From a virus, in IMG/VR virus record IMGVR_UViG_3300023174_006137, positions 64,001-128,000 of that record: a stretch of DNA of 64,000 nucleotides, one strand, 5' to 3'. The notes beneath the pieces are model-generated. The model did no database searches. It was given only the letters and a program-made list of their open reading frames with translations, and had not been told where the DNA came from. Numbering within the stretch: the stretch's first letter is position 1; every line of letters begins with the position of its first letter. This document shows positions 13,761 through 53,701 of this stretch, piece after piece. A program made the translations under genes and the position numbers.

Positions 13761-16067
13761 ATGAATAAAATCACACACGGAGGTATCTATAAAATACATA
13801 GAGCCAAATTATTTGAAAATGTTAATAGTTACACAGATTTAGTAAAAACTATCAAAAAATGGGGTAAAAATAACCCAAATGAAAATGACACAGGTTACAA
13901 TAAATTAGTAGGTATGGCTTATGAAATTTTCTTCCATTTTTGGGGATTAACTTGTGGTCATAATGTGGGTGTTAGTATAAAAGATTTGCAAGATACGAGT
14001 TATGATGAACATAATCGTGGTGATGACTTTTTATACACCAGTTTATTTGATGAACCTGGTGGAATACAGGTTAAATTTCGTTCTTCTGGTATTTATCAGT
14101 TTCATAATGGAGCATTAGATGGTTTTTTACAAAAAACACGTGCCGTGAATCACATGTGTCGTCCTAATAATACAATATTATTTATAAGTATAGACGATCA
14201 TCCAAAATTATTTCATTATGCTTATGATGCGGCGATAAGGAGAGAAATAAGAATAATTGATAGAAAAGTACAAGAATATTATATAAACCTTGAACCAGAC
14301 TTTTGGAATAGATTTAGAGAATGTATAAAAGAATCAGCAAAAAAAGAATTCCTTGATGACCCTGAACTAAGAGATGTGCAAAAAACTATCTTATATGGTA
14401 ATCAATTTTATAAAGGTACACAACAAGTTATTAATAGGCTAACAGAAAAAGGAAGAGTTGAAGCTTCAACCGCTACCGGTAAAACACTATGTATTAAAAA
14501 AGATATTGAAAATGCGTTTAATACTAAAAGAAAAATTGTTGTATTAACAATACCATGGCGAGCATTGATAGGGCAAACTTTTACAGATTATTATACACAT
14601 AAATTATTTGGTTGGCAAGACAAACAAGGTGTGATTCATAATCAAGATAAACCATCTTGCGTGGTTGTTATGTCAGGCGAAAATTTGTGTTATGATGATG
14701 AAATAGCTGATGTGCATCAATGTTTAACTTCTGAACTTTTGGAAGGAAAAATTACTTCAAATTTAGTTAAAGATAAAAAAACTCTTATTATTATAACTAA
14801 GGATTCTTATGATAAATGGTATGATAAAGAAAAAAATAATGGTGTTTTCACAAGCTTAATTGAAAAAAAATTAATCAATAAAGATGATGTTTTTGAAATA
14901 TTTGACGAATATCATAACATGATTCCAATTACTGGTGATAGAGATAAACATCTTTTAACTGCTAATTTTTTACAAACTTTATCTGAAAGAAATTCAGGAA
15001 CAATTTTTTATAGCGCAAGTAATAAAAATGGTGAATTAGTTAGTTCTTTTAACGAAAAACAATTTGGAACACTTTTAGCTAAAATAACAAGAAATGATCT
15101 AAGAGTCAGAGGTTATGTTTGTCCTGGTTTAGAATTTCGTTTTATATCAATAAAAAATATTTATGCCTCGGCTGAGGATAGACGAAGAATGGAAAATAAA
15201 GGAGTTGATTTAAATTTAGCACAAATAGAAGCAGCTGGTATAGTTACGGCATATGAAGATATTGTCCGCAATTACTATAAACAGCCTAATATGATGACAT
15301 TTGGTAGTCATGTTCCGGGTTGCGCATTTATAAATGCTGATGAAGGAATAAAAGATAAATTACAAGATGTTAATTTACATCTTATGTATTGCGACACGCC
15401 AAATACAGATAGAGCAAAAATTATTGACATTATTAAAAAAACAGGAAATAATATTTTAAATCAACATTCTGTAGCTGGCGAAGGTGTTAATATTCCCAAT
15501 TTACATTCTATTATTATACATCGTGGAATGAGTTTTAAAAGTTTGCAACAAGCAATTGGTAGAAGTGATAGAGCATTACTTGAAGATACTATAAACTTTC
15601 AAAAAGGTCTTATAACATTAGATAATCCAATTGGATGGAAAAAATATTGGAATATAGTTTATGTAATCATTGATGATGATGATGATAAAAATACACAACG
15701 CTTAATTATAGAGTTAGCTAAATATCTTTTAAATAATGGTATTCCGGAAAATAAATGGGCTTTTTCTGCAGTTGAATATGAGCAAAAAGTTGGTGTAGAT
15801 AATAAAATGCAAAAAGGAGCTTATCGTGATTTTGAGACAAATTTTGATAGGAATAAATTGGATAATATGGTCAATAAAGCTATTATTAAAGCAAAAGAAG
15901 AAGTTGAAAATGAATTAGCATCGCTTGATGACATTTATTTTAAAGAAATTGATTTTGAAAAAGAAATGGCTAATTTCGAAGTTGAAAAATGGTATAACAA
16001 TTTAAGTACTGAAGAATTATACCAATATGCAAAAAATATTTGTGAAGATAAAAATGACAATAGATAG
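13761..16067 (+). CDS. SF2 helicase with N-terminal PD-(D/E)xK-like nuclease (restriction-enzyme-like)
   Basis: GDD...IQVKFRS; STATGKT, FDEYH, SAS, EGVNIP, QAIGRSDR; start set at ATG 13761. Confidence 0.65.
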   Translation: MNKITHGGIYKIHRAKLFENVNSYTDLVKTIKKWGKNNPNENDTGYNKLVGMAYEIFFHFWGLTCGHNVGVSIKDLQDTSYDEHNRGDDFLYTSLFDEPGGIQVKFRSSGIYQFHNGALDGFLQKTRAVNHMCRPNNTILFISIDDHPKLFHYAYDAAIRREIRIIDRKVQEYYINLEPDFWNRFRECIKESAKKEFLDDPELRDVQKTILYGNQFYKGTQQVINRLTEKGRVEASTATGKTLCIKKDIENAFNTKRKIVVLTIPWRALIGQTFTDYYTHKLFGWQDKQGVIHNQDKPSCVVVMSGENLCYDDEIADVHQCLTSELLEGKITSNLVKDKKTLIIITKDSYDKWYDKEKNNGVFTSLIEKKLINKDDVFEIFDEYHNMIPITGDRDKHLLTANFLQTLSERNSGTIFYSASNKNGELVSSFNEKQFGTLLAKITRNDLRVRGYVCPGLEFRFISIKNIYASAEDRRRMENKGVDLNLAQIEAAGIVTAYEDIVRNYYKQPNMMTFGSHVPGCAFINADEGIKDKLQDVNLHLMYCDTPNTDRAKIIDIIKKTGNNILNQHSVAGEGVNIPNLHSIIIHRGMSFKSLQQAIGRSDRALLEDTINFQKGLITLDNPIGWKKYWNIVYVIIDDDDDKNTQRLIIELAKYLLNNGIPENKWAFSAVEYEQKVGVDNKMQKGAYRDFETNFDRNKLDNMVNKAIIKAKEEVENELASLDDIYFKEIDFEKEMANFEVEKWYNNLSTEELYQYAKNICEDKNDNR

Positions 16068-41378: not shown

Positions 41379-42962
41379 TTAATTTTTATAACTATCTTTT
41401 AAAGAAACTGTTTTTATAAAACTTCCATCTAAATCTTTGGTATAATAACCATTTCTTACAAATTGTGCAGCTTTACCAACTTCACAATTATCAATATTTA
41501 ATTCACTATAAATTATAGTTTCATGTATTACATCATTCTTTATTTCACAATTATTATCTAAAAATAAATCTTCATACTCCTTAACCATAATTTCTTTATT
41601 ATATAACGCAGAAACCCAGTGAATTGTTCCTTTTACTTTTCTATCTGACTTGCCAGATTTTGTATCTACATCAATAGTACATCTTATTTCAATTATATTA
41701 CCAATGCTATCTTTGATGATTTCATTTGCTTTTATAATATAAGCACCTTTTAATCTAACTTCGCCACCTAATTTTAAACGATAATATTTCTTATCGGCTT
41801 CTTCTCTAAAATCTTCATTTTCAATATAGATTTCTTTTGTAAAAATAACTTCTCTTTTACCATCATTTGGATTTTCAGGATTATTTTCAATTTCACAAAT
41901 TTCAGAACCTTCATAATTCGTTAAAACAACCTTAATAGGATTGAAAATGCACATATATCGATATGCTATTTTATTTAAATGATTCCTTAAACATTCTTCT
42001 AATAATTTATAATCAATTACAGATTCTCTTTTAGTATAACCAATGATTTCACAGAAATTTTTAATAGATTCTGGAGTATAGCCTCTTCTTTTTAACCCAG
42101 ATAATGTTAATAATCTTGGATCGTTTAATGTATACCCTTCTTCAATCAAAGACTTAAACTTCCTTTTACTCATTAAATGATTAACAACATTCAATCTAGC
42201 AAATTCGGTTTCTTCTGGTAAATTATTTTCTAAATCTAAATTATTTAATATCCAATTATAAAGAGGACGATGTAATTCAAATTCCAAAGTGCATAAAGAA
42301 TCTGTTATTCCTTCTATGTAATCTGAAATAGGATGAGCAAAATCATACATAGGATAAATACACCATTTATTACCAGTATTATGATGTTCTTCTTTAATTA
42401 TTCTATATATGATAGGATCTCTCATGCACATTATCGGACTTGACATATCAATTTTCAATCTCAAAGTGCAATGACTTTCTCCATAGATACCATTTTTCAT
42501 ATTTTCAAATCTATATAAATTATCCTCAATACTTCTATTTCTATAGATAGAATCTATACCTGGTTTCACTAAATCTCCTTTATTATTGGCTATTTCTTCG
42601 GAAGTTGAATCATCAACATAAGCTAACCCTTTATTTATTAATTTAACAGTACAATTATAAATATAATCAAAATAATTGGATGTATATTCTATTTTGGAAG
42701 GGTTAAAGCCTAACCATTTAATATCTGCTAAAATTGCATCAATATATTCGGATTTTTCTGCACAAGGATTTGTGTCATCAAATCTTAAATTACATGAGCC
42801 ATTATATTTTTCCGCTAAACCAAAATTTAAACACATCGATTTTGCATGACCGAGATGTAAAATAAAATTGGGTTCCGGTGGAAAACGCAATACTGGATTG
42901 ATTCCATTATTTACTTTTTCTAATATTTTTTCTTCTATAAAATTCATAATTTTTAATACCAT
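41379..42962 (-). CDS. glnS: Glutaminyl-tRNA synthetase
   Basis: RFPPEPN, HLGH, RFDDTNP, YPMYDFAH, CTLEF, MSKRK, KVKGTIHWVS. Confidence 0.95.
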   Translation of the reverse strand: MVLKIMNFIEEKILEKVNNGINPVLRFPPEPNFILHLGHAKSMCLNFGLAEKYNGSCNLRFDDTNPCAEKSEYIDAILADIKWLGFNPSKIEYTSNYFDYIYNCTVKLINKGLAYVDDSTSEEIANNKGDLVKPGIDSIYRNRSIEDNLYRFENMKNGIYGESHCTLRLKIDMSSPIMCMRDPIIYRIIKEEHHNTGNKWCIYPMYDFAHPISDYIEGITDSLCTLEFELHRPLYNWILNNLDLENNLPEETEFARLNVVNHLMSKRKFKSLIEEGYTLNDPRLLTLSGLKRRGYTPESIKNFCEIIGYTKRESVIDYKLLEECLRNHLNKIAYRYMCIFNPIKVVLTNYEGSEICEIENNPENPNDGKREVIFTKEIYIENEDFREEADKKYYRLKLGGEVRLKGAYIIKANEIIKDSIGNIIEIRCTIDVDTKSGKSDRKVKGTIHWVSALYNKEIMVKEYEDLFLDNNCEIKNDVIHETIIYSELNIDNCEVGKAAQFVRNGYYTKDLDGSFIKTVSLKDSYKN

Positions 42963-42966
42963 TTTG

Positions 42967-43037
42967 TAATCCCATACTGGAACGATCAGTATTCTTCAGG
43001 GTCAAAACCTGACGCATCACCTTAATGCTTTGGGATT
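42967..43037 (-). tRNA. tRNA-Gln(UUG)
   Basis: Cloverleaf; anticodon arm TCAGG TTTTGAC CCTGA. Confidence 0.8.
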
Positions 43038-43044
43038 ATATTTG

Positions 43045-43116
43045 TAGTCGGACTAGGAGTCAAACCCAGTCTACGAAGGCCAAATCTTCGTGTGCGCATC
43101 GGTACACTATCCAACT
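43045..43116 (-). tRNA. tRNA-Gln(UUG)
   Basis: Anticodon arm CGAAG ATTTGGC CTTCG. Confidence 0.75.
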
Positions 43117-43122
43117 ATGTAG

Positions 43123-43205
43123 TTGCCAAGACAGGACTCGAACCTGTATTTACTTCTCGTCCTCCGCTTTCAAAGAGCGGGATGCTACCATTACACCACT
43201 TGGCA
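43123..43205 (-). tRNA. tRNA-Gln(UUG), long variable region
   Basis: CCGCT CTTTGAA AGCGG; U1-A72. Confidence 0.85.
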
Positions 43206-43207
43206 AT

Positions 43208-43243
43208 AAAAAAACCGTTCAATCAAATCAGATTGAACGGTTT
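43208..43243 (-). terminator. Attenuator terminator of the Gln module
   Basis: AAACCGTTCAATC tgattt GATTGAACGGTTT followed by a U tract. Confidence 0.9.
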
Positions 43244-43264
43244 AGACAATAAAATCTCACACCA

Positions 43265-43312
43265 TCAATCTGGTTTAAATAATTGTTGTTGTTGAGAAGT
43301 TAAAGTTTTCAT
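43265..43312 (-). promoter_or_regulatory. Leader peptide MKTLTSQQQQLFKPD (Gln attenuator)
   Basis: Four tandem CAA codons; 3' CAGATTGA is complementary to terminator TCAATCTG. Confidence 0.8.
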
Positions 43313-44191
43313 TTTTTTATAATAATTTATAAATTTTTCTATTTCAGTTTTTATATATTCTTTTCCTGCTTCGTTATTTATTGATTGCCATTTTATTCTA
43401 TAAATATTAAAATGTTTTAATAAATTTTTATCTCTTTCATTATCATGTTCAACTCTATATTCATGTTGTTTACCATCTATTTCTAAATCAATATTTCCTT
43501 CTTTAATATAGAAATCTAAAAAATAATTTCCATTTCCTTCTATATTATATTCTTTTTTTATTATAGTTTTATTAGGCTCATATTTTATGCCATTGTTTTC
43601 TAATACCATTTTGAAAAACTTTTCTGGATAACTTTCAATATTTCTTGATTGCCAACCTTTATGTGTTCCATTTTTTATTCTTTCTTTAACTGAATCTCTT
43701 AATTTATTTTTATATTCCTCGCTTGTAAATTGACACTTTTTACTACAATATTTTCGATTAATATTTTTTCCAGTATATGTTTTTTTACAATTGGGACATT
43801 CTTTTATGTATTCCTCTTCATTATATTTTTTATTCCACGGAATATTATTTTTTAATGTATTAGATATTTTTTTACATCTTTCCTCATATTTTTCTTTATC
43901 AAAATTAGTATTATTTTTACCATGTTGATAATAAGAATTTGAACATGACGATGAACATGTTTTCTTACCATTTTCTGTTGTTTCAAATTCGTTAAAACAA
44001 ATAGGACAAATAAGTTTAATTTTTTGGTATTTTCTATTTTTGTTTTTATTTTCAAAAATAGATTTATTAAATCCATTTTGTTCTAAAACTTCTGCTGCCT
44101 TTTTATTGCTTCGTCCATTAGAATAACCATATAATTTTATGGCTAAGTCATTAATGGAAAAACTTTCATTTATAATTTTAATGATATCCAT
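43265..44191 (-). CDS. Homing-endonuclease-like protein (Zn fingers + DUF559/Vsr-like nuclease), in frame with the Gln leader
   Basis: CxxC/CSxxC repeats, SYPE, FLDFY...LEIDGKQH...RD; start set at ATG 44191 after AATATATA. Confidence 0.75.
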   Translation of the reverse strand: MDIIKIINESFSINDLAIKLYGYSNGRSNKKAAEVLEQNGFNKSIFENKNKNRKYQKIKLICPICFNEFETTENGKKTCSSSCSNSYYQHGKNNTNFDKEKYEERCKKISNTLKNNIPWNKKYNEEEYIKECPNCKKTYTGKNINRKYCSKKCQFTSEEYKNKLRDSVKERIKNGTHKGWQSRNIESYPEKFFKMVLENNGIKYEPNKTIIKKEYNIEGNGNYFLDFYIKEGNIDLEIDGKQHEYRVEHDNERDKNLLKHFNIYRIKWQSINNEAGKEYIKTEIEKFINYYKKMKTLTSQQQQLFKPD

Positions 44192-44232
44192 AAGATATAT
44201 ATTAAAATTGTCGGAGAAAGTTTTTCCGAACC

Positions 44233-44311
44233 TGGTCGAGAAGGTGAGATTCGAACTCACGAGTTGTCTTGGTCCCAAACCAAGCCGGGTACCTGACTCC
44301 CGAACTTCTCG
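44233..44311 (-). tRNA. tRNA-Pro(UGG)
   Basis: CTTGG TTTGGGA CCAAG; encoded CCA. Confidence 0.85.
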
Positions 44312-44317
44312 TTTTTG

Positions 44318-44391
44318 CGGTCTGTACCGGGTACGATCCGGCAACCTTCCCCGTGACAGGGGGATATTGTATCCATTTCTACTAACAGACC
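44318..44391 (-). tRNA. tRNA-Asp(GUC)
   Basis: TCCCC CTGTCAC GGGGA; G73. Confidence 0.85.
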
Positions 44392-44399
44392 ATTTTTTG

Positions 44400-44477
44400 C
44401 AGTGACGACGGGACTCGAACCCGCAAACCTCCCGATAGACAGTCGGGCATTCTGACCTAAAATTGAACTACGCCACT
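44400..44477 (-). tRNA. tRNA-Asp(GUC)
   Basis: CCCGA CTGTCTA TCGGG; G73. Confidence 0.85.
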
Positions 44478-44483
44478 ATTTCG

Positions 44484-44568
44484 TCTGGGTGACAGGGCTC
44501 GAACCTGCATAAGATGTTAATCATTCTCCTGTCCAAGAGGAGTCGGCTTCCATTGCCTTCACACCCAG
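44484..44568 (-). tRNA. tRNA-Pro(UGG), long variable region
   Basis: CTCCT CTTGGAC AGGAG; C1-G72, A73. Confidence 0.8.
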
Positions 44569-44573
44569 AAATT

Positions 44574-44607
44574 AAAAAAACCTATTAGCTTTTGACTAAC
44601 AGGTTTT
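44574..44607 (-). terminator. Attenuator terminator of the Pro/Asp module
   Basis: AAAACCTGTTAG tcaaaag CTAATAGGTTTTTTT. Confidence 0.85.
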
Positions 44608-44631
44608 AAATAATACAATTTAAAAAATCGT

Positions 44632-44721
44632 TTATATAAACACATAGTTAGTCCACTCCTTATCAGGATCCTGATCCGGTTGTTGTTGTGGAACTACTTG
44701 TATGTTTATATTGTTTTTCAT
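44632..44721 (-). promoter_or_regulatory. Leader peptide MKNNINIQVVPQQQPDQDPDKEWTNYVFI
   Basis: 10-codon P/Q/D-only tract; GACTAAC is complementary to terminator GTTAGTC; promoter at 44783-44813. Confidence 0.8.
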
Positions 44722-44782
44722 TTTATTATAGTATATATTGTTTTTAAAAAATGCTTTTTTGCTATTGTTTAATTTTGTAGTG

Positions 44783-44813
44783 CAAAGATACATAAAAGTT
44801 TGAAATCAGCAAA
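44783..44813 (-). promoter_or_regulatory. Bacteroidota-type promoter of the Pro/Asp/Gln tRNA operon
   Basis: TTTG-N19-TATCTTTG. Confidence 0.8.
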
Positions 44814-44867
44814 AATTTTTTTTTTAATTTTTACATATTAATTTGCATAATATAATATATAGTAAAT

Positions 44868-46751
44868 ATGGATAAAGTAATTCTTGATACTACGAATAAT
44901 GAAACAATTATTAAACCAGTTTATATCTATAAAGTTTTCAAAATAAAAGATATTGAAATACTTGGTAGAGGTGATACTGATAATTTAGATATTTATTATC
45001 GTTTTTCACAAGATTATGGTAGAACAATTTCGGATTTTATTCTTTTCACAAAAGAAAATATTATTTCAGAAAGAATTAATCCAATTCGTTTTTTCCAAAT
45101 TGAGTATTATTTAAGATATACCGGAACTTCTACCGCTACTATCTTTGATATAAATTTAGTTGGCGATTTCCAAAATGTATCATTAGACGGACAAAAAAGT
45201 AATGTATATGGCATAAGAGAAAACTGCAATTGCCTTATTGCTGGTTTAATTTGTGACCCTTCAACTTTACCAGAAGGTATGCCACCAGGTGGAATATCAA
45301 GTATGTTAATGTCTAACTATAATACTGAATCGACTAATTTGCCTGCTTTAAATAGCGAACAAATTGCTAATTTATATAATCCATATCAACAAGCACAAGC
45401 ACTTACTTTATTTAATAAAATGAGTAATGATGTTTCTAATTTATTTGGGCATGATGTTATTTATGTATTAACGGATCCAGATCAAAATGGAACTGATTAT
45501 ACATTCCATGAATATACTATACAAAATTATATTTGTGATGCTAAATTAAAAGTAAATGTTGATAATAACCAATTTCCAGATAATACCGGTGCTTTAAATA
45601 ATTTTGATTTATCTTTATTTGATAGTTTTGAAATTAATATAACAAAAGATGCTTTTAAAGCGGCTTTTGGTATTGAAAAAAGACCAGGTTTAAATGATGT
45701 TATATGGTTTTGTAATATAAATAAATTATATACTATTGAACATGCACAGGCAATAAGAAATTTTAATAATTATTCAATCTACTATAAAGTGATACTTAAA
45801 AAATTCAATCAAAAAGCAAACATTATTGGAGCAACACAAGAAATACAAGATGTGCTGGATAATTTAACAAAAAATACCACATTAGAAGAATTAATGGGGC
45901 TAGAGAATATGCAAGATAAAAAGGCAACCGCAAATAACGAACAATTAAGACCGGCAAATAAAGCACAAGAAACTTTAAGAGTTGATATTTATTCAAATAT
46001 AGAACAAGAAATTATACAAAATGCTTCAGTGACAGTTGCTAAAACTTGTTATGAAATGTCAACGGTTCAATTTAACGAACCAGGTGTTGTATATAGAAAC
46101 TTTAAATTTTTCTATCAAAAATCAGACAATATAGGTTTTAGTTGTTGGTTTAATATAAATAATTTAACTATGAACGATACTTACCATTTCTTTAATTATA
46201 TGGATGTTTCAAATAATGGTTTTAAGTTTTATATGTTAGGAAATAGTATCTTTGTTAATCTTAACGGTGTAGCAAACGAATTTAGTTTAATAGATGAAAA
46301 TTGTAATAATGCTAATTTAGCAAGTAATGTTTTATCAGAAAATGTATGGTATGCTTTGGTAGTTAATATAAATCAAAGATTAAATGGTTTAGAGGTTTAT
46401 TTATATAAGAGAAATGTTGATTACGAAGAAGATGCTGAATCATTATCGTCATCTAAATTAAAATTAGTAAACAAAGTAATTAAGGGTGTTGAACCAAGTA
46501 TTTTAGATATATCACCAGATACTAATGCCAATATATTAGGTTCTGATATGAAAATCACTAATTTAAGATTGTTTAATGATGTTATACCAGAAGCACAACA
46601 TAATAAAATGTTAAACTTATTCTTAATAGGTGCTGATTATAAATATGCCATATTTACAGATAATGCAAACCAAGATGCAAATATGCCATCTAATATAGAT
46701 AGCAGAATAAATTATAATAAAATTAGAAGAGGAACTGGATTAGATAACTAA
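44868..46751 (+). CDS. Virion protein: T4 gp14 neck-like domain + LamG-like C-terminus
   Basis: FGHDVIYV, KRPGLNDVIWF...KLY; FSCWFN, NVWYALVV, ITNLRLFN. Confidence 0.55.
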   Translation: MDKVILDTTNNETIIKPVYIYKVFKIKDIEILGRGDTDNLDIYYRFSQDYGRTISDFILFTKENIISERINPIRFFQIEYYLRYTGTSTATIFDINLVGDFQNVSLDGQKSNVYGIRENCNCLIAGLICDPSTLPEGMPPGGISSMLMSNYNTESTNLPALNSEQIANLYNPYQQAQALTLFNKMSNDVSNLFGHDVIYVLTDPDQNGTDYTFHEYTIQNYICDAKLKVNVDNNQFPDNTGALNNFDLSLFDSFEINITKDAFKAAFGIEKRPGLNDVIWFCNINKLYTIEHAQAIRNFNNYSIYYKVILKKFNQKANIIGATQEIQDVLDNLTKNTTLEELMGLENMQDKKATANNEQLRPANKAQETLRVDIYSNIEQEIIQNASVTVAKTCYEMSTVQFNEPGVVYRNFKFFYQKSDNIGFSCWFNINNLTMNDTYHFFNYMDVSNNGFKFYMLGNSIFVNLNGVANEFSLIDENCNNANLASNVLSENVWYALVVNINQRLNGLEVYLYKRNVDYEEDAESLSSSKLKLVNKVIKGVEPSILDISPDTNANILGSDMKITNLRLFNDVIPEAQHNKMLNLFLIGADYKYAIFTDNANQDANMPSNIDSRINYNKIRRGTGLDN

Positions 46752-47050
46752 ATTTTATCAGTAATTTTAGAAATACTTTTATCAATATCTGCAAAAGATG
46801 GAATAGAATTTCCTATATAAATAAATGCAATATTCTTATTCTTAACTATTGATTTCCTAACAGATTCTTTCATTAATCTTTTGATGTAATTTCTATCAAC
46901 CGCTCTTTTGAACTTTTTAGAAGAAACCGCAAAAAGAAATGAACTATTAGATTCAGATTCTAAAATTTTAACCATTATTACATCACTTGAAATGGTTTTA
47001 CCATTTTTAAACAATTCGTCAATTATTATCTTATTTTTTAAAGTTTTCAT
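46748..47050 (-). CDS. rnpA: Ribonuclease P protein component
   Basis: FAVSSKKFKRAVDRNYIKRLMKES (RNR motif), LFKNGK, AFIY. Confidence 0.85.
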   Translation of the reverse strand: MKTLKNKIIIDELFKNGKTISSDVIMVKILESESNSSFLFAVSSKKFKRAVDRNYIKRLMKESVRKSIVKNKNIAFIYIGNSIPSFADIDKSISKITDKI

Positions 47051-47054
47051 AAAA

Positions 47055-47426
47055 TTAATTTAATAAATCATTAATTCGGTTATATCGTCTCCATGCTATT
47101 CGTGCTGATTCATATTTTTCAGTTCCTTTTACTGATTGTCCAGTATAAGTTCCAATATATGCTATGTTTCCAGTCATTATTTTTTTATCTAAACATTCAT
47201 CACATATAGCTATGATGAATTCATCCGTATCAAATTTACTACCATATCCGGCACTAATTAGGTCTACTACACCATCTTTCCACATTTGTGAGCCAGCATC
47301 TAATATAATTTCTTCTTCTGGTTCACCATGAAATCCTATCTTTTCTTTATTGAAAACAACATCTTCTTCATTTTTACCTTCTATAAGATATAATGAAATC
47401 TTTTTATCGCAACAAATACACATCAT
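47055..47426 (-). CDS. Hypothetical protein (CxxC pairs; C-terminal RYNRINDLL)
   Basis: Host-type promoter at 47432-47463. Confidence 0.6.
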   Translation of the reverse strand: MMCICCDKKISLYLIEGKNEEDVVFNKEKIGFHGEPEEEIILDAGSQMWKDGVVDLISAGYGSKFDTDEFIIAICDECLDKKIMTGNIAYIGTYTGQSVKGTEKYESARIAWRRYNRINDLLN

Positions 47427-47490
47427 AAATGCAAATATACAAAGAAAAAACTAATTAAACAAAAAATATTTAAAGTAATATATAAATTAA

Positions 47491-48099
47491 ATGAAAAAAA
47501 GGCAACATATAGTAAAGACATTTGAAGGGTTTACAAAAGATAATTTAGATTATTTAGTGACATATAAAAAAACATATGTTAGACAACAATTTAGAGACAG
47601 GGGAATTGATTTGAATAAAATACAAAAAATAGTTAAAGAATATGATATAAGCAACTTTCGTCTTGACGATAAAGGTTATGGCATTTTTATCTATCCAGAC
47701 ACAAACTTTATTGAATTATTAAAACAATTAGACCCAAGAGTCGATGATAATATGAGATTTTATTTAACCTTAACAGGTGATATGAACCAAATAGATTTTA
47801 GCGATGGATTACCACCTTATTTAAGAGGTCTTGGCGTAGCGTACAAATTATATAAAATGACTATAGAAAAAAATAAGTATATAACTTCTGATAGATTCTC
47901 ATCATTGCATGCTTGGAACTTATGGTATAATTTATTACAAGATAACGATTTATATTGTTTTACTTCTAATATAAGGAGTGGTTTAATAAGCAAAAAAGTA
48001 AATGAAGAGGAATTAAAAGAAATAATTAATAAATTAAGTGTAGGAGTTGAAAATATAGAATACGATGACGACTTAAAAGAAAAATTAGGTATCTGTTAA
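47491..48099 (+). CDS. Hypothetical protein, GNAT-like motif
   Basis: YLRGLGVAYKLY...SD...AWNLW. Confidence 0.45.
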   Translation: MKKRQHIVKTFEGFTKDNLDYLVTYKKTYVRQQFRDRGIDLNKIQKIVKEYDISNFRLDDKGYGIFIYPDTNFIELLKQLDPRVDDNMRFYLTLTGDMNQIDFSDGLPPYLRGLGVAYKLYKMTIEKNKYITSDRFSSLHAWNLWYNLLQDNDLYCFTSNIRSGLISKKVNEEELKEIINKLSVGVENIEYDDDLKEKLGIC

Positions 48100-48222
48100 A
48101 ATTATATCATAATTATATAATGACATTTTTGTAAATTATTTTTTATGTAGGTTTAACTACTAACTATTATATGTATTTTTTATCAAAAATTTGGTTAGGC
48201 AACTATTTTAATATATAGGTTT

Positions 48223-49164
48223 ATGTGTTTCAATAGTAAAAAACATTTTATTAAAAACTTTAAGCAGTTTGAGAATAATTTACTAGATATAAAAGAAGAA
48301 TTAGTTAATTTTCCTTTAAAAAAATTAATTTATATAATAAAGCAAAAAATTGAAGGAACTATTAAAGAAGGTGAAAATAAATATAATTTTGATTTCTCAC
48401 AAGAAAAATTTTTACCTATAAAGTTTAACCTTATTATTAATTATATAATCGAAGAAGATATTGATTATGGTGGCTATATCGATTACAACGAAATAAAAAG
48501 AGTTAAGTTTAATAATTTAAATTTACATATTGATATACAAGATAAAGAAATAGACTATACTTCTGTTTATTCAACAATAGGGCATGGATTAAAACATGTG
48601 TTTGATATATACCACAACGACCCTTACCAAGAAGTAAATAAAATGAAAATTATTTGGAAACTTCATGGTGATAATCAAAATAAGTATTTAAGAGAAATAC
48701 TTTATTTGACATATTTAGCATTAGGTTATGAGTTAGAGGCAAGAAATAATGAACTATATAATAAGTTAAGATGGCTAAAAAGTTTTGATAGTTCTATGAT
48801 TATGGACGAGTTTAAAAAAACATATGTATATAAATCTTTAATGGAATTAAAAAATTTTAATATTGATGAAATATTAAATAATGTAGATAATAATGAATTA
48901 ACTGAATTTCTAACAGAATACGCTAATAAAATCTATGATAGAGATATAGATACCCCTAAAAACTTTTTAGAAAGAATAAAAGGTTTCTTTAATGCCGTTG
49001 GCGATGCTTATTTAAGCAAAGCAAAAGACATTTTAGATGAATTAATAATAGACAATAGACCTTATATGGAAACTAAAAAACACACATTTTTTTATGAATA
49101 TCTTTATTTACTTAATTTAGAAAAAGAAATGGAAGAAATTATTGAAAAAATTAATTTAAATTAA
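48223..49164 (+). CDS. Zincin-like protein with degenerate HGxxH motif
   Basis: IGHGLKHVF...YELEAR; resembles 54576..55514. Confidence 0.5.
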   Translation: MCFNSKKHFIKNFKQFENNLLDIKEELVNFPLKKLIYIIKQKIEGTIKEGENKYNFDFSQEKFLPIKFNLIINYIIEEDIDYGGYIDYNEIKRVKFNNLNLHIDIQDKEIDYTSVYSTIGHGLKHVFDIYHNDPYQEVNKMKIIWKLHGDNQNKYLREILYLTYLALGYELEARNNELYNKLRWLKSFDSSMIMDEFKKTYVYKSLMELKNFNIDEILNNVDNNELTEFLTEYANKIYDRDIDTPKNFLERIKGFFNAVGDAYLSKAKDILDELIIDNRPYMETKKHTFFYEYLYLLNLEKEMEEIIEKINLN

Positions 49165-49216
49165 ATTAATAAAAGGATAAAATAAAAAACAAAGCAAAAA
49201 TGCTTTGTTTTTTATT

Positions 49217-49462
49217 TTAAATTGTTGGATATACAATCAAATCACCAGACTTAATCGCTTTGTTAACATACCTCAACAAGGTTATTGCCTTATATTCTGC
49301 TTCAAATTTTGTTGTACCAACATCATCCGTGTCTGATAAATCTACAGGAAATAAATATGTTTTACTATTGGTAATAACTTTATACCATAAACATTGACAA
49401 CATGCATAAGCAAATTTTGCTTTAGTGTCTTTAACGACATCTAATACTTTAATCTTTTCCAT
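49217..49462 (-). CDS. Hypothetical protein
   Basis: ORF; terminator at ~49185-49214. Confidence 0.6.
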   Translation of the reverse strand: MEKIKVLDVVKDTKAKFAYACCQCLWYKVITNSKTYLFPVDLSDTDDVGTTKFEAEYKAITLLRYVNKAIKSGDLIVYPTI

Positions 49463-49517
49463 TTTAAATAATTTATTTTTGTGATCATACTAAAGATATT
49501 TCACTCTAATATGTCTG

Positions 49518-49590
49518 TAGTTCCAACGAGATTCGAACTCGTATCATAATTTTAGGAGAATTATACCTTATCCTGTTAGGCTATGGAACC
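49518..49590 (-). tRNA. tRNA-Arg(CCU)
   Basis: TAATT CTCCTAA AATTA. Confidence 0.85.
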
Positions 49591-49596
49591 ATTTTG

Positions 49597-49682
49597 TACC
49601 GCTAGCAGGACTCGAACCTGCACTATCTTTACAGAAAACGGATTATGAGTCCGTCACAATTACCACATCTGCTCATAGCGGC
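49597..49682 (-). tRNA. tRNA-Met(CAU), long variable arm
   Basis: ACGGA CTCATAA TCCGT. Confidence 0.8.
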
Positions 49683-49688
49683 ATATTT

Positions 49689-49967
49689 TTATACTCTTTT
49701 ACTTCTCCATTTAATAAACTTTTTCACATCAGGATGTTCTAAAAGTTTTTCCTTTGTATTATATGTTAAGCCCATTTCTTTTTCAGTTATGAACCGATGT
49801 ATTTGCCCATGACAATAAAATTTACATATCCAAATACCATGATTTTTCAAATAATCTTTATCATAATTCTTTTTGAAGAACTTATTTGAATGCAAAGTCC
49901 TTGGAATTAAATGATGAAAATTTAAATAATCATTTGTTGAGCCACACAATTCACATTTATCTATCAT
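49689..49967 (-). CDS. Small HNH-like protein
   Basis: CELC...FHHLIP...IC..CH..IH. Confidence 0.7.
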   Translation of the reverse strand: MIDKCELCGSTNDYLNFHHLIPRTLHSNKFFKKNYDKDYLKNHGIWICKFYCHGQIHRFITEKEMGLTYNTKEKLLEHPDVKKFIKWRSKRV

Positions 49968-50107
49968 AATATATCATAATAATACCAAGTATTATCATAT
50001 TTTTCATTAACAATTTTTGTTATTTCATCTTTTTCCAATTCTTCATTAATAAAAAATGATTCATTTTTCAAATATTCTAAATCAAAATAAACTACTATTT
50101 CAATCAT
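49964..50107 (-). CDS. Small hypothetical protein (47 aa)
   Basis: MIEIVVYFDLEY...; ATGA-coupled to the HNH gene. Confidence 0.4.
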   Translation of the reverse strand: MIEIVVYFDLEYLKNESFFINEELEKDEITKIVNEKYDNTWYYYDIL

Positions 50108-50154
50108 AATTTTTTTTTTATTTTAATCAATATCTATACCTTTTTGAATTACTA

Positions 50155-50182
50155 ACTCCTGCGTATACCAATTCCGCCATAT
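50155..50182 (-). pseudogene. tRNA remnant (D-arm fragment)
   Basis: TGGCGGAATTGGTATACGC without anticodon or T arm. Confidence 0.5.
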
Positions 50183-50190
50183 GATAATCG

Positions 50191-50263
50191 TAGCTCTGAT
50201 GGGAGTCGAACCCACACATTTCCGAGTTTGAATCGGTTGCCTCGCCAGTTGGGCTACAGAGCC
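50191..50263 (-). tRNA. tRNA-Leu(CAA), short variable loop
   Basis: CCGA TTCAAAC TCGG. Confidence 0.75.
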
Positions 50264-50269
50264 ATTTTG

Positions 50270-50351
50270 TGCAGAAGAAGGGAGTCGAACCCTCACACCT
50301 TTCGGCACAGCAACCTCAATGCTGCGTGTTTACCAATTACACCACTTCTGC
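50270..50351 (-). tRNA. tRNA-Leu(GAG)
   Basis: CAGCA TTGAGGT TGCTG; long variable arm. Confidence 0.9.
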
Positions 50352-50357
50352 AATTTG

Positions 50358-50433
50358 TAGCACTCCTGGGATTTGAACCCAGAACTCTCAGGTTCTAAAG
50401 CTGAGTCCTCTGCTCTTGTTGGGATAGAGTGCC
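50358..50433 (-). tRNA. tRNA-Leu(UAG), short variable loop
   Basis: TCAGC TTTAGAA CCTGA (C31.C39 mismatch). Confidence 0.65.
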
Positions 50434-50438
50434 ATAAT

Positions 50439-50468
50439 AAAAAAATCCCGTCAAATTGACGGGATTTT
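50439..50468 (-). terminator. Attenuator terminator of the Leu/Met/Arg module
   Basis: AAAATCCCGTCA att TGACGGGATTTTTTT. Confidence 0.9.
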
Positions 50469-50490
50469 AAATAATCTTAAAAATAAGAAT

Positions 50491-50559
50491 TTACATAAGA
50501 ATCCCGTCCAATGTTTCCATTAGATTAAGCAAATTCATATTTAGATTCCTATTTCTCAT
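50491..50559 (-). promoter_or_regulatory. Leader peptide MRNRNLNMNLLNLMETLDGILM
   Basis: Uses AGG, CTA, TTG, CTT and ATG codons; contains GACGGGATT complementary to the terminator 5' arm; promoter at 50592-50622. Confidence 0.8.
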
Positions 50560-50651
50560 ATTATTATATATTAATTTTTTATTTCTTTTTACAAAAGTAA
50601 GAAAAAATTTTTATTTTACAAATTTTTTTTAAAATTTTTTTCTTGTGGTAA

Positions 50652-50912
50652 TTAACTAAATGTTATTTGATCATAATCATACCAATCATTTTTAGTATAG
50701 TCCCAATGTCTAAAATCATAAAAACTGATATGAAAATATACTAATTTTAATAACTCTATGCGAAATTCAACACCAGCATGATCACATTTAGAACGTGACT
50801 GCAATGAAATTACAAACCAATTGGCTAGGTCATTTAAGGTTAATTGTATTTCTATACCTTTATGTAAAGTTATTTGTTTAAAAAATAAAAAGGTTTTACT
50901 AAATTTTTTCAT
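50652..50912 (-). CDS. Hypothetical protein
   Basis: ORF between tRNA clusters. Confidence 0.6.
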   Translation of the reverse strand: MKKFSKTFLFFKQITLHKGIEIQLTLNDLANWFVISLQSRSKCDHAGVEFRIELLKLVYFHISFYDFRHWDYTKNDWYDYDQITFS

Positions 50913-50947
50913 GTAGAATTATTTTTTCTTATATATAAATTTTTTTG

Positions 50948-51036
50948 AGTGCAAAACAGGATTCGAACCTGTGATGTTGGAATTTACCAAGACACTTTTG
51001 CAGAGTGCCGCTTTCGACCACTTAGACTACTTGCAC
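50948..51036 (-). tRNA. tRNA-Cys(GCA), long variable arm
   Basis: GCACT CTGCAAA AGTGT; U73. Confidence 0.85.
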
Positions 51037-51043
51037 AAATTAG

Positions 51044-51116
51044 AGGTGCTGATAAGAATTGAACTTATGTATTAGATTTTGCAGATCTACGCCTCAAACC
51101 GCTCGGCCACAGCACC
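51044..51116 (-). tRNA. tRNA-Cys(GCA)
   Basis: TAGAT CTGCAAA ATCTA; U73. Confidence 0.85.
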
Positions 51117-51127
51117 ATTAAATTAAG

Positions 51128-51200
51128 AGCTAAAGAACGGATTCGAACCGATATCATCTTTCATACCAAGAAAGTACCTAAACCATTCAGTCACTTCAGC
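51128..51200 (-). tRNA. tRNA-Thr(GGU)
   Basis: CTTTC TTGGTAT GAAAG. Confidence 0.85.
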
Positions 51201-51206
51201 ATTAAG

Positions 51207-51280
51207 AGCTAAGGAAGGGATTCAAACCCTCATATTCTTCATTACAAGTGAAGCGCCTAATTCAGTTCAGCCACCTTAGC
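51207..51280 (-). tRNA. tRNA-Thr(UGU)
   Basis: CTTCA CTTGTAA TGAAG. Confidence 0.85.
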
Positions 51281-51287
51281 ATTTTTG

Positions 51288-51360
51288 TTGTCCTGGTGGG
51301 TAACGATCCCACTGCCTCGATCTTATCAGGATCGCCATCTAACCATTGATATACAGGACA
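51288..51360 (-). tRNA. tRNA-Ile(GAU)
   Basis: CGATC CTGATAA GATCG. Confidence 0.85.
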
Positions 51361-51370
51361 ATTTTACTTG

Positions 51371-51443
51371 TTGGATTGATCGGTTACGATCCGACTCTCT
51401 ACACGATATCAGCGTGTTGCTTTCCCGATTAAGCTACAATCCA
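51371..51443 (-). tRNA. tRNA-Ile(GAU)
   Basis: ACACG CTGATAT CGTGT. Confidence 0.85.
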
Positions 51444-51448
51444 AATTG

Positions 51449-51522
51449 CGGGAGTAGTAGGACTCGAACCTACCACCATTCGATTAACAGTCGAATGCTC
51501 TAACCAACTGAGCTATACTCCC
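51449..51522 (-). tRNA. tRNA-Asn(GUU)
   Basis: TTCGA CTGTTAA TCGAA; G73. Confidence 0.9.
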
Positions 51523-51528
51523 AATTTG

Positions 51529-51601
51529 TATTCTTGATCGGTTACGATCCGATTACCTCCACCATGTCACAGTGGCGCTCTCCCAATTGAGCTACAAGAA
51601 C
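51529..51601 (-). tRNA. tRNA-Val(GAC)
   Basis: CCACT GTGACAT GGTGG. Confidence 0.85.
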
Positions 51602-51606
51602 ATTTG

Positions 51607-51678
51607 CTGATGAGGAGAATTACGATATCTCGACTCTCGCCTTAACAGGGCGACACTCTGCCTCTGAGTTACTCACCA
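51607..51678 (-). tRNA. tRNA-Asn(GUU)
   Basis: TCGCC CTGTTAA GGCGA; G73. Confidence 0.85.
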
Positions 51679-51685
51679 ATTTTTG

Positions 51686-51772
51686 TGATCCTAACAGGAT
51701 TCGAACCTGTGTTAACATTTACTGCCTCAGGCTTGTAAAACCTGCGCTCTAAACCAACTGAGCTATAGGATC
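51686..51772 (-). tRNA. tRNA-Val(UAC), long variable region
   Basis: CAGGT TTTACAA GCCTG. Confidence 0.85.
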
Positions 51773-51778
51773 AGTTTG

Positions 51779-51852
51779 TAGTTCCAGCGGGATTCAAACC
51801 CAGCATGAAGGCTTTAGAAGAGCCTCGTCCTATTCAGTTAAACGATGGAACC
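51779..51852 (-). tRNA. tRNA-Arg(UCU)
   Basis: AGGCT CTTCTAA AGCCT. Confidence 0.85.
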
Positions 51853-51857
51853 ATTTG

Positions 51858-51930
51858 TCGGAGCGCCGGGAGTCGAACCCGATTTAAGTGTGTATAAGAC
51901 ACCTGTGCTATACCGTTCTACTACACTCCG
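51858..51930 (-). tRNA. tRNA-Ile(UAU)
   Basis: GGTGT CTTATAC ACACT. Confidence 0.75.
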
Positions 51931-51936
51931 TTATTG

Positions 51937-52023
51937 TGGCTCAGGTCGGGGTCGAACCGACACGGGCGTTGCGGCCCACGGGATTTTAAGTCCCGCATGT
52001 ATTACCAGTTTCATCACTGAGCC
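51937..52023 (-). tRNA. tRNA-Leu(UAA)
   Basis: CGGGA CTTAAAA TCCCG; long variable arm. Confidence 0.9.
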
Positions 52024-52036
52024 ATTTTATTTACTT

Positions 52037-52070
52037 AAAAAAAAAATCTCAAACTTTTGAGTTTGAGATT
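52037..52070 (-). terminator. Attenuator terminator of the 13-tRNA module
   Basis: AATCTCAAACT caaa AGTTTGAGATT followed by a long U tract. Confidence 0.9.
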
Positions 52071-52093
52071 AAATCCAAATATAAAATATTTTA

Positions 52094-52195
52094 TTACACC
52101 TGTCGATTTAATCCCATACCAACTCTAATCACACATAACGTATTGTTATTTATGATTAAATTATTATTAATGGTATTTCTACAAATGTTTTTCAT
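52094..52195 (-). promoter_or_regulatory. Leader peptide MKNICRNTINNNLIINNNTLCVIRVGMGLNRQV
   Basis: Codons 3-25 encode only N,I,C,R,T,L,V; TGGGATTAAATC pairs with GATTTAATCTCA overlapping the terminator. Confidence 0.85.
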
Positions 52196-52282
52196 ATAGC
52201 TTATATATTTAAATTTAATTTTGTTTTTTTGTCTTATGGACTTTTTATTGTTTTATTTGCTTGTTTGTTTTTAATTATAATG

Positions 52283-52313
52283 CAAAGATACGCAAAAGTT
52301 TTAAAATAGCAAA
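52283..52313 (-). promoter_or_regulatory. Bacteroidota-type promoter of the 13-tRNA operon
   Basis: TTTG-N19-TATCTTTG. Confidence 0.8.
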
Positions 52314-52351
52314 TTTTTTTTCAATTTTTTTATATTTTTCTTTTAATAATA

Positions 52352-52684
52352 TCAATCATTTATTATATCATTTATTTTTTGCTCACGATGTATAGCTAAT
52401 GGTATAAAATTATCAGAAATAATACCACCAAACCAACATTCTGGCATATCAATTATATCTCCAATTTTATATTCTCGTATCTCTTTTATACATATAAAAG
52501 GTATAATTGAATATAATGATGATATTGGAACATTAAATTTAGTTTGCGTATTTAATTTAAATACCAAAGCTCGTTTTTTTCCATCAAAAGAAATTAAGGA
52601 ACACTCACCATTATTCCATGACTGCGATGCAGAATCACTATACAAATAGTAAGTGTTTCCTATAATTAATTTTTTTGCTTCCAT
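52352..52684 (-). CDS. Hypothetical protein (C-terminal REQKINDII)
   Basis: ORF track. Confidence 0.55.
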   Translation of the reverse strand: MEAKKLIIGNTYYLYSDSASQSWNNGECSLISFDGKKRALVFKLNTQTKFNVPISSLYSIIPFICIKEIREYKIGDIIDMPECWFGGIISDNFIPLAIHREQKINDIIND

Positions 52685-52956
52685 GAAGATTTTTTAGTTA
52701 TATGATTAGCAACTTCTTCAGGTGTGTTAAACATATTATCCTCATTTCTAATAACACTATAAAATTGAGGCATACCACCAACTTCTGTTTCAGTTGCTTT
52801 CCTATCAACTAAACAATTATAAGTTGTTATAACACCAGTTGCTATAACTTTAATATCAATAGAAGAAATAATTGCTTCAACTATTTTTGCTTTTTCGTCC
52901 GAACCAACAACTATAAAAATAGATTGTCCATGTTCATATGTAGTTTTAATTGTCAT
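52666..52956 (-). CDS. Hypothetical protein
   Basis: ORF track. Confidence 0.6.
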   Translation of the reverse strand: MTIKTTYEHGQSIFIVVGSDEKAKIVEAIISSIDIKVIATGVITTYNCLVDRKATETEVGGMPQFYSVIRNEDNMFNTPEEVANHITKKSSWKQKN

Positions 52957-52960
52957 ATTA

Positions 52961-53701
52961 TTAATTTAATTCTCTAAATTCATTTATATTTAATAAATAA
53001 TGATTACAATAACCATTCATAGTTATTTCCGATGCATGGTAATGTCCATAAACATGATATTTAATCCAATTTCCATTTGATTGTAAAATGTTAAACATTT
53101 CAGTCATATCATCTCTTTCTTTTTTTAAATCAGCATACAATTCTTTATCGGAATAGGCAAAATCATCAACAAATTCACCAAATCCTTTCCGATTATCTGG
53201 ATAACACCATTCAGGTGCGGTATGTGATACAACTACATCAACACCAGTTATATCTTTTAACTTTTCTCTATCTAAAACAAATACTTCATTTTCCCACCAT
53301 GATTTTTGACTTGAACCATTATGTGAATTTAATATATCTCTATTAATCCTATATCGTCTATCAATAGATACGGCACCACCAACAAATAAATGCTTTTTAC
53401 CATCTATTTCCATAGTAGTATAATCAGGAACTAATTTTAGATTAGAATAAATATGATTTCCTAAAAAATAATATGGCGAATCATGGTTCCCTCTGCAAGC
53501 TATTAGAATCAAGTTTTTTGTGGCACAAAATTTATTTAAATCTTCTAAAGTTTGTAAATCATATTTATTATTAAATCCAATTCCAAAATCTCCAACTTGG
53601 ATAATATAAGTAACTTCTTCGTTGTCACCTAATTTATATCTATCAATCAGAGATTTAATTGTTTTCCATGCGCCGTGTATGTCTCCTAAGTAAATAGTCA
53701 T
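52961..53701 (-). CDS. Calcineurin-like metallophosphoesterase
   Basis: GDIHG, VGDFG, RGNHD, SHTAP, GHYH; promoter at 53716-53746 supports this start. Confidence 0.9.
   Translation of the reverse strand: MTIYLGDIHGAWKTIKSLIDRYKLGDNEEVTYIIQVGDFGIGFNNKYDLQTLEDLNKFCATKNLILIACRGNHDSPYYFLGNHIYSNLKLVPDYTTMEIDGKKHLFVGGAVSIDRRYRINRDILNSHNGSSQKSWWENEVFVLDREKLKDITGVDVVVSHTAPEWCYPDNRKGFGEFVDDFAYSDKELYADLKKERDDMTEMFNILQSNGNWIKYHVYGHYHASEITMNGYCNHYLLNINEFRELN

Follow-up and report, generated by a model that had tools for sequence, protein, structure and literature searches.

The element described here lies on the minus strand of a 64-kb window (the whole stretch of DNA that was analysed, 64,000 nucleotides) belonging to a 159-kb IMG/VR virus record, which has a GC content of 26% and is estimated to be 22% complete. 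A neighbouring protein has matches in two uncultured phages, LR745206 and LR756502 (635 kb and 642 kb), and genomes of that size class have been assigned to the Mahaphage clade, for which Bacteroidetes hosts are predicted (PMC7162821). Alternative genetic codes were considered for this genome and rejected, since coding in long ORFs already reaches 77% with code 11 and little is gained by recoding. A strong terminator is located within ∼190 nt of a promoter, directly 5' of tRNA genes, with a short leader ORF in between. The features, in the direction of transcription, are as follows.

50592..50622 (-), promoter of the Bacteroidetes type (TTTG, 19 nt, TAnnTTTG), from a pattern search
50565..50572 (-), gene-start motif AATATATA, 5 nt before the leader ATG
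50491..50559 (-), leader ORF, 22 codons plus TAA, from the ORF listing and codon count
50518..50556 (-), presumed sensing zone, codons 2–14, from the steric folding model
50497..50508 (-), antiterminator segment in the ORF, codons 18–21, with an exact copy of GACGGGATT, from folding
between leader ORF and hairpin (-), spacer of 22 nt
50435..50468 (-), intrinsic terminator with a 12-bp stem (50468-50457 and 50453-50442), a 3-nt loop and a U tract
50357..50433 (-), tRNA-Leu (UAG), 77 nt, short variable arm, A73, by ARAGORN and Rfam
50269..50351 (-), tRNA-Leu (GAG), 83 nt, by ARAGORN and Rfam
50190..50263 (-), tRNA-Leu (CAA), 74 nt, short variable arm, A73, by ARAGORN and Rfam
49689..50107 (-), two small ORFs within the array, one of 47 aa and one of 92 aa with HNH-like Cys/His motifs
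49596..49682 (-), CAU tRNA, 87 nt, long variable arm, anticodon stem of the non-initiator type, by ARAGORN and Rfam
49517..49590 (-), tRNA-Arg (CCU), 74 nt, by ARAGORN and Rfam
49178..49219 (-), next terminator-like hairpin, 3' of an 81-aa ORF

The promoter pattern TTTG-N19-TAnnTTTG is matched 16 times in the 64-kb window, compared to 6.2 matches expected. Three of the 16 are located just 5' of leader ORFs (50622, 52313 and 44813), and the homologous site in a relative (locus L016, described below) is a match as well. The motif AATATATA precedes most promoter-proximal leaders in all phages compared, 5–10 nt 5' of the ATG, as well as 29 of the 167 long ORFs of the 159-kb genome, so that the start signal of the leader is that of ordinary genes. 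A second AATATATA site was noted at 52212-52205(-), and the motif recurs at many loci. It is a general gene-start signal, which could be either a translation signal or a phage promoter giving near-leaderless mRNAs. The leader is the sole ORF of at least 20 aa on the minus strand between promoter and terminator, and tRNA-Leu (UAG) begins 1 nt past the U tract. No minus-strand terminator was found between 50435 and the hairpin at 49219-49178, which likely marks the end of the transcription unit. A Pfam search with the 47-, 81-, 86- and 92-aa ORFs gave no matches.

The initial annotation proposed that the leader is written in codons read by the tRNAs behind it. Its codon list (CTA, TTG and CTT twice each, one AGG and three internal ATG) is exact; the leader further contains one AGA and five AAT. 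The avoidance of TTA, the common Leu codon of the genome, is equally clear. In the 133 long ORFs of the 159-kb genome, 67% of the Leu codons are TTA, compared to 5% CTA, 13% CTT and 12% TTG (30% for these three together), and none of the six leader Leu codons is TTA (chance about 0.33^6 = 0.001). In the same ORFs, AGG makes up 7% of the Arg codons. The Leu and Met codons of the leader match the downstream anticodons, which both ARAGORN and Rfam identify as Leu-UAG, Leu-GAG, Leu-CAA and CAU. The Arg part of the match fares less well: the link between AGG and Arg-CCU is weak, since it involves a single codon. The closest relative, G001, lacks both, having no AGG at codon 4 and no Arg-CCU tRNA on its contig, itself a fragment, whereas L013 has an Arg-CCU tRNA in its array and a leader without AGG.

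Altogether, the five downstream tRNAs read 10 of 21 leader codons. The binomial probability of such a match (p = 9e-9) is too favourable a figure, as junk ORFs that are out of frame or antisense score about as well. The fair statistic is the empirical rank: among the 2062 ATG-initiated ORFs of 10–45 codons in the whole genome, the leader ranks fifth for codon match (0.24%), with four other junk ORFs reaching a similar score. Weight is added to this rank by the position of the ORF, its conservation and seven parallel cases in the same genome. Compared to the 10/21 for its own array, the leader scores 0–2/21 with six other arrays and 14/21 with the sister array, the last owing to AAT. The matching codons are not concentrated in the presumed sensing zone (6/12 inside, 4/9 elsewhere), where AGG, two CTA, TTG, CTT and two ATG are interleaved with AAT.

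The sequence GACGGGATT occurs three times in the 64-kb window, compared to 0.13 occurrences expected, and all three are within the element: one copy in the ORF (50500-50508), one in the terminator 3' arm (50444-50452) and one as the complement of the 5' arm (50458-50466). This count, together with folding, confirms the earlier suggestion that the ORF holds an exact copy of the 3' arm that is able to compete for the 5' arm. The full-length RNA folds into the terminator and a folded ORF region (z = -5.4 relative to shuffled sequences). In folds of a transcript cut off at the terminator loop, the partner of the 5' arm is instead the ORF stretch of nucleotides 52–63 (50508-50497). We then masked the ribosome footprint codon by codon and folded the RNA at equilibrium. 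In this steric model, which is a model and not a measurement, the antiterminator forms with P = 0.8–0.9 when the A site is on codons 2–14, and with P of about 0 from codon 15 to the stop. The boundary falls at codon 14/15 in both this phage and its closest relative, where P is 0.48 at codon 15 and <0.1 from codon 16 (L016). The antiterminator forms in ribosome-free RNA as well (P = 0.81 when the truncated transcript is folded at equilibrium); thus, the default without ribosomes may be ON, unlike in trp. A pairing between nucleotides 24–29 and 56–61, conserved in the full-length minimum-energy folds of both phages, might hold an untranslated leader off.

The same module was found on G001, a 190-kb contig (loci L010, L016 and L098) whose neighbouring protein is 71% identical to that of the window. 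G001 was the only hit in an exact-pattern scan of viral contigs for the terminator, the leader core and the Leu-UAG tRNA, and megablast of the region against GenBank phages returned only a tRNA fragment in Vibrio phages. A closer relative, L018, has the same array order; its sequence ends before the leader, placing it outside the leader comparison. The proposal depended on the ORF being kept in homologues, and the ORF of L016 has the same length and frame and identical codons at all six Leu positions. Its 51-nt core (codons 5–21) differs by a single substitution, GGG to AGG (Gly to Arg). This G-to-A change pairs with a C-to-T change in the 5' arm, and is matched by a G-to-A change in the 3' arm; the core substitution alters the amino acid and leaves both RNA pairings intact. 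The UTR, spacer and loop differ by indels between the two phages. The G001 leader ends in TAG (L016:16169-16171(-)) rather than TAA, where stop read-through would add four codons, and G001 also carries an amber-suppressor-like tRNA with the anticodon CTA (L099:913-986(+)).

An endonuclease-like ORF (49689-49967(-)) is located inside the Leu/Met/Arg array of the window and would be under the control of the attenuator. A homologue of the 92-aa ORF is found at the same place in L018 (10715-10960(-)), and L016 has a different endonuclease-like ORF at another array position (about 15180-15990(-)). The differing positions of these ORFs suggest repeated insertion of mobile genes into the tRNA arrays.

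We scanned metagenomes with the neighbouring protein, which gave 80 loci, and an automatic search for modules (a tRNA behind a terminator, and a short ORF whose end is 15–35 nt upstream of the terminator) yielded 38. Homologues of the leader stand before an undivided Asn/Arg/Leu/Val/Ile/Thr/Cys/Met array in about ten other huge phages (43–54% protein identity). The leaders of this family start with AAT-YTA-AAT-ATG, as does the present leader, and continue with the T-L-C-x-I-R words of the leader at 52195-52094. The present leader is a paralogue of the undivided-array leader family. The terminator arms of the family fall out of register in a MAFFT alignment, and a cross-complementarity matrix was used instead to compare six terminator stem sequences (the leaders of the window and L016, plus four undivided-array stem types). 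Each ORF contains a perfect complement of 8–14 nt to its own 5' arm, compared to 4–7 nt to the other stem types. The ORF copy thus changes together with the terminator stem across the leader family. Covariation in homologous phages had been put forward as a check, and the ORF copy and both arms do change together, in L016 as well as in this family. All 28 indels in the family ORFs have lengths divisible by three, and the stop codons fall in line; after the stop, the indels are of mixed length. Codons matching the array account for 151/204 codons 5' of the antiterminator and 47/155 3' of it, a contrast that carries no true probability because the sequences are related.

The array is split in two only in this genome and in G001. 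The split arose once, and the two phages are therefore not independent evidence. After the split, the upstream leader (52094-52195(-), 33 codons, preceding a 13-tRNA array) contains TTA, TGT, AGA, ATH (ATT/ATC/ATA), GTN, ACN and AAY, and its array includes Leu-UAA; the present leader keeps CTA, TTG, CTT and ATG. The five AAT codons and one AGA codon of the present leader are not read by its own array, a caveat raised at the outset; the best explanation is that they remain from an ancestral leader in front of the undivided array. The upstream leader has only a 5–6-nt complement to its terminator 5' arm, which is at background level, and its switch may work differently.

The genome contains eight leader modules. 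The seven besides the present one each match their own array:

leader with H, F, W and S codons, before His, His, Trp, Phe and Ser-UGA
leader with K codons, before Lys (two tRNAs)
leader with TCT, AGT and CGN codons, before Ser-GGA, Ser-GCU and Arg-ACG
leader with A, Y, E and G codons, before Tyr (two), Glu (two), Gly (two) and Ala
33-codon leader at 52195-52094, before the 13-tRNA array
leader with P, Q and D codons, before Pro, Asp, Asp, Pro and then Gln
leader with four CAA codons, before Gln (three tRNAs) and a GlnRS gene

Each leader is in the top 0.05–2.7% of small ORFs for the codon set of its own array (Fisher combined p = 3e-13 from the empirical ranks); arrays other than a leader's own show no general excess of matches. 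Matching at the level of the individual codon is not general across leaders. The presence of CAG in the Gln leaders is not associated with that of a Gln-CUG tRNA (3/4 versus 2/4).

Several further observations concern these modules. In this genome and in G001, the Gln leader with four CAA codons forms the C-terminal end of an endonuclease-like ORF (DUF559), but it is a free-standing ORF of 16–17 codons in L012, L013, L026, L052 and L078. The GlnRS-like gene is located 3' of the three Gln tRNAs; the positions of this arrangement in the window are 43265-44191(-) and 41379-42962(-). An initiator-type tRNA-Met (1:72 mismatch; anticodon stem with GGG/CCC) follows a promoter directly, with no leader or terminator (genome 139443-139515(-), L009:13444-13515), and is the only tRNA here that would be ungated. 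Two interrupted tRNA-like genes (genome 136302-136549(-) and 126871-126976(-), L009) have insertions of 151 nt and 30 nt, which ARAGORN reports as introns.

From its sequence, the element is quite likely a transcription attenuator of the ribosome-mediated (leader-peptide) type, placed in control of a phage tRNA operon. It has the features of such attenuators, namely a short ORF, enrichment of codons for the controlled decoders, an intrinsic terminator and an exclusive antiterminator pairing, the last in silico only. These parts, the codon match, both alternative pairings and the co-variation in relatives can be read from the DNA itself. Frame conservation and the gene-start motif indirectly support translation of the leader; we infer this translation, as well as the coupling of transcription to translation and the direction of the response.

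The proposed switch would operate as follows. Transcription would start from the promoter at 50622-50592, and the 22-codon ORF would be translated while RNA polymerase moves on. If decoding is fast, the ribosome would reach the last codons or the stop and cover the ORF segment GACGGGAUUCUU; the 5' arm would then pair with the 3' arm, and transcription would stop before the tRNAs. If decoding is slow, the ribosome would wait on codons 2–14 (AGG, CUA, AUG, UUG, CUU, CUA, AUG), leaving GACGGGAUUCUU free to pair with the 5' arm. No terminator would form, with read-through into Leu-UAG, Leu-GAG, Leu-CAA, the two small ORFs, Met-CAU and Arg-CCU. The phage would probably make the five tRNAs only when ribosomes decode the leader codons slowly, which would place the supply of these very decoders under feedback.

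The same attenuator hardware could instead respond to amino-acid starvation of the host, mainly for Leu, with the rare codons serving only for sensitivity. The choice of synonymous codons does tune sensitivity in classical leaders (PMC1183508), and a stall looks the same whether a tRNA is uncharged or absent. We nevertheless consider this reading unlikely. The controlled genes are tRNAs rather than biosynthetic genes, and extra tRNA is no cure for a lack of amino acid. Moreover, the sister leader uses TTA and precedes Leu-UAA, indicating that codon choice follows the array and not rarity, and the leaders of the genome together cover nearly all amino acids.

A translation-independent RNA switch, responding to a protein, to a tRNA bound in a T-box-like manner or to polymerase speed, would make the ORF incidental. 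The RNA pairings and their co-variation need no ribosome by themselves, yet such a switch is very unlikely in view of the conserved frame, ORF length and stop position, the indels only in threes, the gene-start motif and a codon content that tracks the tRNA set in eight leaders. In addition, an Rfam search of the region 42500-53000 matched the leader to neither a T-box nor any other family at E≤0.1. It is also very unlikely that the ORF encodes a small peptide with a function of its own, or arose by chance, and that the hairpin serves as an ordinary terminator or a processing signal. Although the peptide motif NLNM is conserved in relatives and four other junk ORFs have a similar codon score, a terminator right behind a promoter would have little purpose unless it can be switched, the sole core substitution alters the amino acid yet keeps the RNA pair, the GACGGGATT copy is unique to the element and there are seven parallel cases.

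If the element is a leader-peptide attenuator, it senses decoding by the anticodon and is therefore silent on the amino acid that a tRNA carries. The suggestion that the leader supports the identity of the short-arm Leu tRNAs is, for this reason, not borne out, as decoding and not charging is sensed. For the CAU tRNA, which had been assigned to Met rather than Ile2, the leader supports one half of the claim, that it reads ATG and not ATA, and leaves aside the charging identity of this long-arm tRNA. It is plausible that the CAU tRNA reads ATG: this codon is enriched in the leader, ATA is absent, and a separate Ile-UAU is present in the sister array. Long variable arms (84–91 nt) are found in the window on tRNAs that normally have short arms, namely the CAU, Gln, Pro, Cys and Val tRNAs (49596-49682, 43122-43205, 44483-44568, 50947-51036 and 51685-51772, all on the minus strand). 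The His and Arg-ACG tRNAs outside the window also have long variable arms; two of the three Leu tRNAs of the element are short-armed instead.

Multivalent leader-peptide attenuators are known in enterobacteria, such as the ilvGMEDA and thr leaders, and the leu leader uses rare CUA codons. As in these systems, a short leader ORF is located here between promoter and operon and contains codons for several decoders, and the terminator 5' arm has, according to the folding model, an alternative partner that would be set by ribosome position. The deliberate choice among synonymous codons is shared with the leu leader, in which replacement of CUA by CUG lowers sensitivity in Salmonella (PMC1183508). 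The present element differs from these leaders in that tRNA genes are controlled, so that the sensed molecule and the product are of the same class. It is also a phage element without sequence homology to them, its regulatory codons are interleaved with AAT rather than forming a run, and it apparently has three segments (the ORF copy, the 5' arm and the 3' arm), with no clearly proven protector helix.

The pheST (pheM) leader of E. coli controls phenylalanyl-tRNA synthetase by attenuation. As in the element described here, leader-peptide attenuation acts there on the translation apparatus rather than on biosynthesis; the pheST system differs in that its target is a synthetase, a single amino acid is involved, it is bacterial and no tRNA gene is known to be controlled. 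In T-box riboswitches, the RNA itself contacts the tRNA by means of a specifier codon and the T-box motif, and no ribosome takes part. They resemble the present element in that the state of a specific tRNA is sensed and a terminator/antiterminator switch lies 5' of translation-related genes. Unlike a T-box, whose specifier loop, T-box sequence and stem I platform the Rfam model detects, the leader has neither the motif nor an Rfam match at E≤0.1, is only about 125 nt long and is an ORF.

In full-text literature searches, no description was found of leader-peptide attenuation of tRNA genes, or of a leader in the form of a checklist before phage tRNA genes, and the paper on related huge phages does not mention a leader or attenuator (PMC7162821). 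The proposed mechanism is that of classical leader-peptide attenuation; the target (phage tRNA genes) and the checklist form of the leader are, as far as these searches reached, new. The element adds a module for rare isoacceptors, a three-way compensatory change and evidence of origin by partition of an ancestral leader.

In a broader reading, to which we give about an even chance, huge Bacteroidetes phages monitor decoding codon by codon, and each block of tRNAs is switched on only when its own codons are decoded slowly, for example when host tRNAs are cut or run down during infection. The present module would be a dedicated sensor for rare Leu/Met/Arg isoacceptors, derived from an ancestral multi-codon leader that was partitioned as the array split, and the leaders would be editable checklists of the tRNAs behind them.

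tRNA genes are generally viewed as unregulated or regulated by growth rate, and phage tRNAs are usually discussed only as helpers for codon usage or as replacements for tRNAs lost to host defence. If the proposed attenuation is true, such leaders, of about 190 nt, could serve as small natural sensors of how fast chosen codons are decoded, and the question of when a phage needs its tRNAs would become open to experiment. Gating of tRNA transcription by a translated leader would constitute direct feedback on decoder supply, specific to single isoacceptors, and would explain why the tRNAs of huge phages are split into blocks.
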